A DNA stretch of 64,000 nt from Naegleria gruberi. Its lineage: Eukaryota. The position numbers were made by a program, and so were the translations under genes. Positions 26,726-30,087 of this stretch are shown piece by piece. Under the pieces are notes generated by a model. It saw nothing but the letters and a program-made list of their open reading frames with translations, had not been told where the DNA came from and searched no databases. The stretch lies in the NCBI GenBank assembly GCA_000004985.1, contig GG738888.1, one strand, 5' to 3'. The first letter of the stretch is position 1; each line of letters begins with the position of its first letter.

Positions 26726-29700
26726 ATGATTAAGGCTAGAAGTAACTCTTCCCTCATTGTTGGTTTGGTGTTGATGTGCATGATTGCATTCTTGAGCGTT
26801 TATGCAAATGCTCGTAGAGGTGGTGGTGGAGGTGGAGGAGGAGGAGGAGGTGGTGGTGGTAGATCAGCACCAGCTGCTGCTCCAGTTTACAGAGCACCTA
26901 CACCAGTTTACACACCAGTGTATAGAGCTCCGCAACCAGTTTATAGAGCTCCACAACCAGTGTACAGAGCTCCACAACCAGTATATAGAGCTCCAACTCC
27001 AGTTTATAGAGCTCCACAACATGTTTCAAGACCTACATCAGTTTATAGACCAGCTTCACAACCAGTTTCAAGACCTGTTACTAGATCTGCTTCTAAACCA
27101 GCTGCTGCCAACAAATTTGTTGCTACAAGGACATTAACTATTGGAAAGATGGCAGTTCACCACCACCACAAGCATGGTAAGCATCACCATCATCACCACC
27201 ACAAGCATGGAAAACATCATGATGGAAAGGATGGTAAGCATCACCATCACAAGCATGGTAAGCATCATCACCATCATCACCACCACCACAAGCATGGTCA
27301 TGGAAAGGATGGTAAGCATCATCACCACCATCATCACCATAAACATGGCCATGGTGGATCTTCTGGCTCAACATCTGCTGGTTCCTCTCCTGTAATGGCA
27401 ACTTTTGGTAGTGCATCCTCCAGGGGTATCTCACCAGTCAGATCAGTCTCAGTTTCAAATAAGAACGAACGTATTAGTGCTCCAGTTAAATCATATAGAA
27501 GTGCTATTAAGTCTACTACAGAAAAGAGTACCAATGGTTCTAAATCATCTGTGTCAGTAAAGAGCCTCTCTGCAGGCAAAGGAAAGGAAAAAGCTCCAAC
27601 TAAAAAGAATAACTCTCCTTCAGTTCGTAAGCAAAATAACAAATCTTCAACTAGTAAGAAAGATACTAAGGGAGATTCAAAAAAGCCAACTACTCAAAAG
27701 GATACTAAGAAGAATATTAAGAAAGATAACAAGAAAGATAACAAGAAAGATACCAAGAAAGATGCTAAGAAGGATGCCAAGAAGGGTACTAAGAAAGATA
27801 ACAAGAAGGTCAAAGATTCAAAGCCAAAGAAAACCACCGAAAGTGATGCGGATGATTTTTCTTACGGAACTGATGAAAGCTCCTCTCAACCACAATACAT
27901 CCCAGTTGAAAGTGCTCCAGTTGTAAGTGGTGACGAATACGTTGCACAAGTTGCTTCTATTCCTCAAAGAACTTTAGAAATTGAAGAAACTCCTGTAGTT
28001 TTTAGCAACCATGCCTTGCAAGTTAAACAATTTGATACTCCTACAGATGAAGAAGCTCTAGTTCAAAAGAAATCAAATAAGATTGACTCTGATGACGAAG
28101 AAGTTCCAGTTCAAAAGAAATCTAAGATTGAATATGATGAAGAAGTTCCAGTAAAGAAGTCAAAGAACATTGATTATGAGGAAGAAAATCCAGTAAAGAA
28201 ATCTAAGATTAAATCTTATGATGAAGAAGCTCCAGTTCAAAAGAAATCTAAGATTGAATATGATGAAGAAGTTCCAGTAAAGAAGTCAAAGAAAATTGAA
28301 TCTGATGAAGAAGTTCCAGTTCAAAAGAAATCAAAGAAGATTGAATATGATGAAGAAACTCCAGTAAAGAAATCAAAGAAAATTGATTATGATGAAGAAA
28401 CTACAAGAAAGAAATCTAAGAAGATTGAATATGATGATGAAGAAGTTCCAGTAAAGAAGTCAAAGAAAATTGAGTATGATGAGGAAGAAAATCCAGTAAA
28501 GAAATCTAAGATTAAATCTTATGATGAAGAAGCTCCAGTTCAAAAGAAATCTAAGATTGAATATGATGAAGAAGTTCCAGTAAAGAAATCAAAGAAAATT
28601 GATTATGATGAAGAAACTACAAGAAAGAAATCAAAGAAGATTGAATATGATGATGAAGAAGTTCCAGTTCAAAAGAAATCAAAGAAGATTGAATCTGATG
28701 AAGAAGTAATTCCAAGAAAGAAATCAAAGAAGACTGAATACGATGAAGAAGAAAATCCAGTTTCTTCTATTCCTCAAAGAAAGAGATCAAAGAAGACTGA
28801 ATCCGATGAAGAAGCTCCAGTTCAAAATAAATCCAACAAGTCAAAGAAGATTGAATCTGATGAAGAAGAAGCTCCAGTTCAAAAGAAATCAAAGAAGATT
28901 GAATATGATGAAGAAACTCTAGTAAAGAAATCAAACAAGACTGAAACTGATGAAGAAACTCCAAGAATGCAATTTAGTGAAGAAACAATGTCAATCAAGA
29001 AGCAATCAGTCAATACTCCAGAAATTCAAGTAGAAGAGGAAGAAGAATCTGAACAAGTTTCAGCCAAGTCAAATAATTCAAAGAAATCTGGAAAGAAACA
29101 TGTTGCCAAGAAACAACCTGTGGAAGATTTAGAAATTGCTCCAAAACAAAGTGCTTCAAAGAAATCAGGAAAGAAGTATGGGAAGAAATCTGCTAAGAAG
29201 TATGGAAAGAAATTAAAGAAATATGGAAAGACATCTGAAAAGAAATTAAAGAAATCAAAGAAATCTGGAAAGAAGCATGGAAAAAAGAAATCTGGAAACA
29301 AGTTTGGAAAGAAATCAAAGAAATCTGGAAAGAAATCAAAGAAGTCAGGAAAGAAATCAAAGTCTAAGAAGTATGGAAAGAAGCATGGAAAGAAATCTAG
29401 AAAGAATAAGAAGTATGGAAAGAAATCAAAGCCAAAGAAGAAGTATGGAAAGAAATCAAAGAAGTCAGGAAAGAAATCAAAAAGAAATCTGGAAAGAAAT
29501 CAAAGAAATCAGAAAAGAAATCAAAGAAGTCAGGAAATAGTAAGAAGTATGGAAAGAAATCTGAAAAGAAATCTGAAAAGAAATCAAAGAAATCTGGAAA
29601 GAAATCTGGAAAGAAATCAAAGAAATCAGGAAAGAAATCAAACAAGAAATCTGGAAAGAGGGTAATTAAAAGGATTCCTATCAAGTCAAACAATTCTGGA

Positions 29701-30087
29701 AAATATACACCTCAACCAGTTGGATTGCCTTATTCAAGATGGTATAAACAAAGAATCAATAGACTTGCTCCTCAATCAGTTACTCAATTCCAACCTATCA
29801 TCCAACCAATGGCCCAACCAATTGTCGCAATGACCACTTCACCAGTTGTGATCAAGCCACAAATTACTCCACAACCAACTATTGTTAACACTCCAACAGC
29901 TTCAGTAGCTCAAAGACCACAATCAGCAAATGGAGCAATGAATATTCAAAACATTGATATCAATATCGCAACCAATCCACAAGCTCCATCTATCGCCAAA
30001 CCAACTCCAAACATTGAATTGATTAGAAGACTTTTGGCTCAAAGAAGACAACAAGCTCAACAAAATCTTATTCCAATACAAAATTGA
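26726..30087 (+). CDS. Secreted ultra-repetitive low-complexity protein (Gly run, PVYRAPQ repeats, His-rich KHGKHHHH block, (KKDxKKD)n, ~20 x 15-16-aa EYDEEVPVKKSKKI repeats, (KKSGKKSKK)n tail, P/Q-rich C-terminus); reading frame interrupted by a +2 frameshift at 29479-29483
   Basis: ATG at 26726, then signal peptide MIKARSNSSLIVGLVLMCMIAFLSVYANA. Coding repeats have period ~45-48 nt from 28050 to 28960. At the A-run aaatcaaaaagaaatct (29479-29483) the frame shifts by 2 nt: the track ORF continues as RNLERNQ to 29665. The original KKSGKK frame instead stays open through VIKRIPIKSNNSGKYTPQPV... to a TAA at 30087, which is track ORF 29725..30087. This is either a homopolymer sequencing error or a genuine frameshift. 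Confidence 0.55.

Follow-up and report, generated by a model that had tools for sequence, protein, structure and literature searches.

Does an extremely repetitive open reading frame (ORF) in the genome of the soil amoeba Naegleria gruberi represent a real gene, and what is the break of frame inside one of its own repeat arrays? The ORF lies on the forward strand at 26726-29665 of the window, by which we mean the whole stretch of 64,000 nucleotides (nt) of contig GG738888.1 that was analysed. The window derives from a scaffold of the N. gruberi NEG-M Sanger draft (the NEG-M reference genome is Sanger-sequenced; PMC9928731, Table 1). As assembled, the ORF starts with ATG and encodes 979 amino acids (aa). 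An earlier reading of the letters (the original prediction) had described it as a chain of repeat modules behind a signal peptide, and the ORF and all described modules are indeed present, with only small details differing. We consider it likely that the locus is a genuine, unannotated N. gruberi protein-coding gene for a secreted, disordered block-repeat protein, whose frame is broken in the reference by one insertion or deletion (indel; an error or a recent mutation) and not by recoding.

The frame break is genuine in the assembled sequence, and a lone small indel separates the assembly from one long protein, which this DNA still specifies or did so at an earlier time. The run of five A (A5) reads AAAAA at 29479-29483, and the spacings between repeat copies are all multiples of 3 except for the two that straddle these positions (83 and 44). 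In a local alignment of paralogous units the lesion appears as a 2-nt gain relative to TCAAAGAAATCTGG or, equally well, as a 1-nt loss relative to TCAAACAAGAAATCTGG near 29633 or to the form with six A (A6), GGAAAAAAGAAATCTGG, at 29279. The slip of frame that had been predicted at the A5 run is thus real, since the spacings depart from multiples of 3 only there and codon usage switches there, but its description as "+2" is not unique because -1 nt fits as well. Frame 1 (coordinate mod 3 = 1), translated from 29026, has stops up to 29407 and is then open for 226 further codons, from 29410 to the stop at 30085-30087. It reads KKKSGKKSKK..., then ...KKKSGKKSKKSEKKSKKSG...KKSGKR VIKRIPIK...LIPIQN and stop, and prolongs the KKSGKK repeat past 29483. 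As assembled, by comparison, 60 wrong-frame residues precede the early stop at 29665.

Codon usage was scored per segment in the three frames, as log-odds against a reference of 11 long ORFs of the window. Up to 29480 frame 2 scores best in each segment; for the His block this means the least negative of the three frames. Beyond the break the preference passes to frame 1, with +0.38 (vs -0.29 and -0.47) for 29483-29665 and +0.24 (vs -0.48 and -0.36) for 29666-30087, where third-position G+C is 0.21, like that of the upstream coding frame. Log-odds are positive in the proposed frame, and only there, for all segments except the His block, and composition-matched shuffles of the last 140 codons were open in 0.015% of trials. 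The frame therefore does remain open to 30087 with a non-repetitive, P/Q-rich C-terminus, as had been proposed. The ORF is more than a by-product of its repeats, since the non-repetitive stretches in general (the three linkers and the C-terminal region of Table 1) are also free of stops and coding-like in codon usage. Deletion of two A's gives an uninterrupted reading of 1119 aa with a seamless ...KKSGKKSKKSGKKSKK... at the join. The repaired protein would have ~1119-1120 aa, 125 kDa, 21% Lys, 12% Ser and an isoelectric point (pI) of 10.0; its sole Cys sits in the signal peptide, so that the mature chain is without Cys. The peptides RVIKRIPIKSNNSGKY and MNIQNIDINIATNPQ are named as search tags for the transcript of the gene.

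Table 1. Features of the repeat-protein locus in window coordinates.
Feature	Position	Strand	Basis
Start codon and predicted signal peptide (aa 1-29, MIKARSNSSLIVGLVLMCMIAFLSVYANA; A-x-A cleavage motif)	26726..26812	+	By-eye reading, hydropathy
Gly14 run (GGT/GGA x14), G32-G45, flanked by RR and R	26819..26860	+	Repeat search; same in L001
PVYRAP(Q/T) heptad array, 21-nt spacing, one Tyr per unit	26882..27085	+	Tandem and direct repeat searches
His-rich block, 65 aa, 41 His (63%), K/G/D spacers; length strain-variable	27158..27352	+	Repeat search, composition
Ser/Thr/Lys-rich non-repetitive linker, aa 210-310	27353..27655	+	Composition
KKDx tetrapeptide repeats, 12-nt unit, ~9 copies, 47% Lys	27656..27832	+	Repeat searches, composition
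Acidic non-repetitive linker, aa 370-441, net charge -12	27833..28048	+	Composition
Acidic/basic (E/K) units (I)E(Y/S)DEE(V/A/T)PV(Q)KKSKK, ~19-20 copies of 14-15 aa	28049..28963	+	Repeat searches
Mixed-charge linker, aa 747-808	28964..29149	+	Composition
Lys-rich array of KKSG/KKYG/KKHG/KKSKK units, 52% Lys, net charge +86; frame 2 to 29480, then frame 1	29150..29664	+	Repeats, codon usage, composition
Frame lesion, A5 run in TCAAAAAGAAATCTGG; relative to paralogous units +2 nt (TCAAAGAAATCTGG) or -1 nt (TCAAACAAGAAATCTGG, or A6 form at 29281)	29479..29483	+	Repeat spacing, codon usage, local alignment
Frame-shifted tail as assembled (KRNLERNQ...RG), stop TAA 29663-29665; probably non-native	29480..29665	+	Codon-usage log-odds -0.29 vs +0.38 in frame 1
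P/Q/I-rich non-repetitive C-terminal region, 140 aa, frame 1, and stop; mostly disordered, confident terminal helix NIELIRRLLAQRRQQAQQN	29665..30087	+	Codon usage, shuffles, structure model

The N-terminus has the layout of a classical signal peptide, with MIKAR, a stretch of 16 hydrophobic residues (SNSSLIVGLVLMCMIAFLSV) and YANA-RR, as read by eye and by heuristic rules: the n-region is basic, the hydrophobic h-region falls within 7-16 residues, and small residues stand at -3 and -1. The Kyte-Doolittle maximum over 19 residues is 2.43 at residue 9 and all later windows stay at or below 1.26, which makes this predicted signal peptide the sole hydrophobic segment of the protein, in agreement with the earlier call. 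Downstream, several modules match their first description closely, namely the His block with its K/G spacers (more than 60% His), the Lys/Asp repeats and the KKSGKKSKK tail (a 170-aa stretch of KKSG, KKYG and KKHG units), for which a 30-nt probe gave 6 matches vs 0 in 100 shuffles. Small corrections concern two others: the poly-Gly run counts 14 and not 13 residues, and the acidic/basic repeats do number about twenty but are 14-15 and not 15-16 aa long (42 or 45 nt at the DNA level). The PVYRAPQ array contains 6 good copies with 3-4 degenerate ones. Within the E/K array a higher-order duplication makes 28173-28312 97% identical to 28476-28615. Three of the repeat modules (PVY, (E/D/S)YDEE and KKYGKK) have a Tyr that recurs at a constant place, and the net charges of the blocks range from -12 to +86, a case of extreme low complexity and charge patterning. 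The composition supports an intrinsically disordered mature protein, with which the structure model of the C-terminal region agrees (mean predicted local distance difference test score 59, and two helices only, at 25-34 and 115-133).

What, then, caused the break? A single indel, with 605 nt (29483-30087) of intact and coding-like sequence after it, points to an artefact or to a very young or heterozygous lesion, and the same two findings do not fit an old unitary pseudogene. Repeat arrays are prone to consensus errors, and we regard a consensus error in this hard-to-assemble repeat as an even call; a very recent or allelic mutation is a serious candidate, if somewhat below an even chance, and all other readings of the indel together are improbable. 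Among the three explanations put forward in the original prediction, the sequencing error and the young lesion both stay live and programmed frameshifting finds no support.

If the A5 run were a site of programmed -1 ribosomal frameshifting or of transcriptional slippage, the gene would have two products, a short one of 979 aa and a long one of ~1119 aa. The shift needed to enter the long frame is indeed -1, an A run lies at the break, and for at least 60 codons downstream neither frame is closed by a stop. However, the zero-frame codons AAA UCA AAA AGA contain no X XXY YYZ heptamer, and only the Lys tRNA on AAA would re-pair after a -1 slip, whereas UCA to AUC and AGA to AAG would not. Nor is there a stimulatory structure in the form of a stable stem-loop or pseudoknot 5-9 nt downstream: the following 117 nt fold at -6.6 kcal/mol, where shuffles average -9.6 (z = +1.2), and 180 of 200 shuffles are at least as stable. 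Transcriptional slippage typically needs 8-9 A/T or more, and A5 is far shorter than the known runs. In the same coding sequence (CDS) the reading frame passes unchanged through other A5/A6 runs, at 27588, 27602, 27679 and 29281. The break interrupts a uniform array, with the same repeat on both sides and no domain boundary, and the zero-frame continuation has negative coding log-odds. The chance that recoding is at work here seems to us extremely slim.

Alternatively, the indel might be real and offset by splicing. A 77-nt GT-AG intron at 29662-29738 (GTAATT...CCTTATTCAAG), which begins exactly on the premature stop of the shifted frame, could rejoin the C-terminal frame; this candidate is canonical at its ends, pyrimidine-rich at the 3' end and of a length (2 mod 3) that leaves a stop-free CDS. 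N. gruberi genes contain introns. Intron boundaries are also among the corrections made to N. gruberi gene models (bioRxiv 10.64898/2026.08.18.745565), which counts in favour of this possibility. But it is one among 67 frame-restoring GT..AG pairs found by brute-force search in this purine-rich region, and with 67 such pairs one tidy candidate is expected by chance. Moreover, codon usage of 29483-29665 prefers frame 1 over the frame that splicing would require, and 29662-29738 is itself open in frame 1, continuous with coding-like sequence. We give this intron a very slim chance, and find it just as doubtful that the protein would keep the RNLERNQ stretch and lose 25 residues, as the spliced model implies.

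A second strain bears on whether the locus behaves as a gene. The 90% cluster of a neighbouring 201-aa protein includes an ENA member (P0003) on the 3,742-bp metagenome contig L001 (ERZ929261/ERR1078381, PRJEB11402), whose DNA (1-3742) is 98-99% identical to window 24538-28167; a strain closely related to the N. gruberi reference is therefore present in that sample. L001 carries the first 522 codons of the repeat-protein gene, intact, and ends inside the E/K repeats at ~28167. Since the contig stops upstream of the lesion, it is silent on whether the A5 run is real, and a search for a second-strain contig over the lesion by way of the neighbouring Sel1-repeat gene found none, only a 53% paralogue. 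The signal peptide, the Gly14 run and the PVYRAPQ array do not differ between the two sequences. The His block is 41 aa longer in L001 (106 aa with 68 His vs 65 aa with 41 His), owing to insertions of 3, 111 and 9 nt that keep the frame. The coding part common to both sequences has five indels, each a multiple of 3 (3, 111, 9, 3 and 3 nt); those in the intergenic part are 41, 27, 1 and 1 nt long. Substitutions are ~3 times less dense in the CDS (~0.3% vs 0.9% intergenic). A claim of strong purifying selection on the CDS was considered and is weakened, as 15 of the 25 intergenic mismatches cluster in one rearranged segment. This segment, window 26026-26166, lies ~600 nt upstream of the start codon and is replaced relative to L001 (a 41-nt deletion, a 27-nt insertion and the 15 clustered mismatches, between flanks that differ by less than 1%); it might affect the promoter of the repeat-protein gene. 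In the neighbouring 201-aa gene (24917-25519) the strains differ only by an in-frame 3-nt TTC insertion at 25341 (202 aa in L001), with no substitutions.

Could the locus nevertheless be a non-functional repeat relic or an old pseudogene, with a long ORF that low-complexity repeats produce as a by-product? It has no homologues, no Pfam domain and no annotation, and the four securely aligned coding substitutions between the strains are all nonsynonymous. On the other hand, there is a single lesion in ~3.36 kb, non-repetitive stretches share the open frame and the coding-like codon usage, the signal peptide is intact and identical in the second strain, and the coding indels between strains keep the frame in five of five cases. 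We see a slim chance for such a relic.

Several points weigh against the interpretation as a genuine secreted-protein gene broken by an indel, or against parts of it. A Sanger consensus at ~8x seldom has indel errors and rarely miscounts a five-base run, which favours a real allele beyond the split given above. The signal peptide was called by eye. The contrast in substitution density comes from few events (4 vs ~10), and with four of four coding substitutions nonsynonymous, purifying selection on the amino-acid sequence is not supported. In-frame indels in CAY or 12-/21-/42-nt arrays are partly expected from the unit length and are no proof of selection. Finally, the function proposed below is read from composition, and expression of the gene is likewise a prediction.

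At the sensitivity reached here the locus is an orphan, for which no relative outside N. gruberi was found, and the deposited proteome does not list it. The original prediction spoke of an annotated ORF ending at 29665; no such annotation exists, the locus being absent from the deposited N. gruberi proteome. An exact look-up in a collection of 15 billion proteins returned neither the 979-aa ORF nor its sub-ORFs, the reverse-strand ORFs over the lesion or the partial product of L001, and an exhaustive phmmer search of the 979-aa ORF against 1.84 billion representatives gave no self-hit and no orthologue. The best match (E = 1.7e-18, 30% identity) runs over the low-complexity E/K repeats, and the matches inspected are low-complexity proteins that carry PQPVYxAP or EEAPVKKKK repeats and are not related to it. 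No match to the C-terminal region came from a database of 5.8 billion protein clusters, from JGI metagenome contigs or from GTDB genome contigs, and Pfam assigned no family to the 979-aa ORF or to the frame-1 C-terminus, including extensin, proline-rich protein (PRP) and any other curated family. In the literature on Naegleria cyst-wall proteomes, on histidine-rich proteins and on PRJEB11402 nothing specific was found. Missing genes are a known feature of the N. gruberi annotation: according to a 2026 preprint, RNA-seq mapping and de novo transcriptome assembly led to the correction of eight gene models and the addition of five kinetochore homologues that had gone undetected (bioRxiv 10.64898/2026.08.18.745565).

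If the gene is expressed as predicted, its ~1119-1120-aa product would enter the secretory pathway and lose its signal peptide, leaving a Cys-free, disordered and strongly cationic chain (21% Lys, pI ~10). Along this chain Gly14 would be followed by the Tyr-bearing PVYRAPQ heptads, the His block, the KKDx repeats, the ~20 acidic/basic units, a 52%-Lys block and, last, the P/Q-rich region with its terminal helix. These blocks could change in length by in-frame replication slippage or unequal exchange, which may account for the 41 residues by which the His block differs between strains. As for the NEG-M reference, its frame is shifted at 29479-29483, within the Lys array, by one small indel of net -1/+2 nt. 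Outside the cell, in a cyst wall, a surface coat or a substrate glue for instance, the protein may be a multivalent polyelectrolyte that acts as scaffold or adhesive. Its Lys blocks might bind polyanions, its acidic/basic units might associate with each other, its His block could bind metal or act as a pH-dependent charge switch, and the regularly spaced Tyr would be available for cross-linking. The idea of matrix, spore-coat or cement material, already raised in the original prediction, agrees with signal peptide and composition; we put forward such a scaffold or adhesive function, like that of extracellular wall, coat or adhesive proteins and drawn from composition, as a tentative possibility.

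Comparison with known systems concerns likeness in composition and layout and not homology. Mussel foot proteins (Mfp-5 and the His-rich Mfp-4) and the Pc cements of the sandcastle worm are likewise secreted, disordered, modular and of low complexity, and they share Lys/Gly/Tyr-rich blocks (compare KKYGKK here), His-rich metal-binding blocks and opposite charges capable of coacervation. The Naegleria protein, however, has no sequence homology to them, unites all blocks in one chain and belongs to a soil amoeba; the resemblance is one of composition only. Plant proline-rich cell-wall proteins and extensins of the PPVYK type start with a signal peptide and continue in short Pro-Val-Tyr-basic repeats that each contribute one Tyr, an arrangement that serves Tyr cross-linking in walls. 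The Naegleria unit is PVYRAPQ and not PPVYK or SPPPP, and the absence of a Pfam extensin or PRP match and the unrelated best matches with PQPVYxAP repeats set it apart. KAHRP and HRP2 of Plasmodium falciparum combine an N-terminal hydrophobic signal with poly-His and with Lys-rich arrays that act by charge, in repeats of strain-variable length, but there is no homology, and repeat units, organism and cell biology (host-cell export in Plasmodium) differ. Diatom silaffins with their SSKKSGSYSGSKGSKRRIL units are secreted Lys/Ser/Gly/Tyr-rich repeat peptides that have the KKSG motif in common with our protein; homology is again lacking, as are the silaffin processing motifs (RRIL), and silica formation is not known from Naegleria. 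Among low-complexity secreted proteins the Naegleria protein is of an unusual kind, though one with precedents, and its frameshift is ordinary.

It is tempting to go further and speculate about a protist counterpart of the animal bioadhesive cements, in which one secreted chain would self-coacervate and harden in the Naegleria cyst wall, in a pore plug or in a substrate glue, although we think this unlikely. It is equally doubtful that the polycation block, the ~20 acidic/basic units, the variable metal- or pH-responsive His block and the spaced Tyr would have been brought together in one chain for such a role. There is also an outside chance that, in such a cement, the lengths of the blocks and possibly, via the indel at 29479, even the C-terminus would vary between strains.

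The surroundings of the gene are those of an ordinary eukaryotic scaffold. Two ORFs of the window correspond residue for residue to "predicted protein [Naegleria gruberi]" entries, that at 2667-3965 to XP_002673781.1 (NAEGRDRAFT_51411) and that at 24917-25519 on the reverse strand to XP_002673864.1 (NAEGRDRAFT_71159), and both entries are placed on one 351,708-bp scaffold. The G+C content of the window is 33-38%. Its long ORFs encode an ABC transporter, a myosin heavy chain, EGF/fn3 and REJ surface proteins, a Sel1-repeat protein and a reverse transcriptase. Scans of the window with Rfam and for tRNAs were empty, and the bacterial promoter and terminator scan is inapplicable to a eukaryote. 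Three runs of N mark scaffold gaps, at 43112-46634 (3523 nt), 51911-51960 (50 nt) and 60786-62906 (2121 nt), and the long ORFs listed across 43009-50095 are artefacts of translated N. Next to the first gap, at 37446-40557 on the forward strand, are two adjacent ORFs, of which the first begins ...GDLNINTLFG, reminiscent of an endonuclease, and the second contains a domain of reverse transcriptase (PF00078, E = 1e-21); the pair resembles a non-long-terminal-repeat retroelement beside the assembly gap. Tail-to-tail with the repeat-protein gene, at 30199-31410 on the reverse strand, lies a gene for a 404-aa protein with seven Sel1 repeats (Pfam E = 1e-57). Nothing near-identical to this protein is present in the protein database, where a 53% N. 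gruberi paralogue is the best match, and its gene probably lacks an annotation in the reference proteome too. The 35 kb that hold the repeat-protein gene also contain three genes for EGF-containing proteins, at 23343-24698 (reverse strand; EGF and fibrinogen-C), 31938-35723 (forward; EGF and fn3) and 54079-58317 (forward; REJ and EGF), with products that are presumably at the surface or secreted.

The locus adds a missing gene model to the N. gruberi reference, marks one position for scrutiny at the level of reads and documents strain-level length variation of a poly-His block. If the protein is indeed extracellular and structural, it would rank among the first candidates for a matrix or cyst-wall protein in Naegleria, where the proteins of the wall are essentially uncharacterised, and would represent a compact natural multi-block polyelectrolyte.

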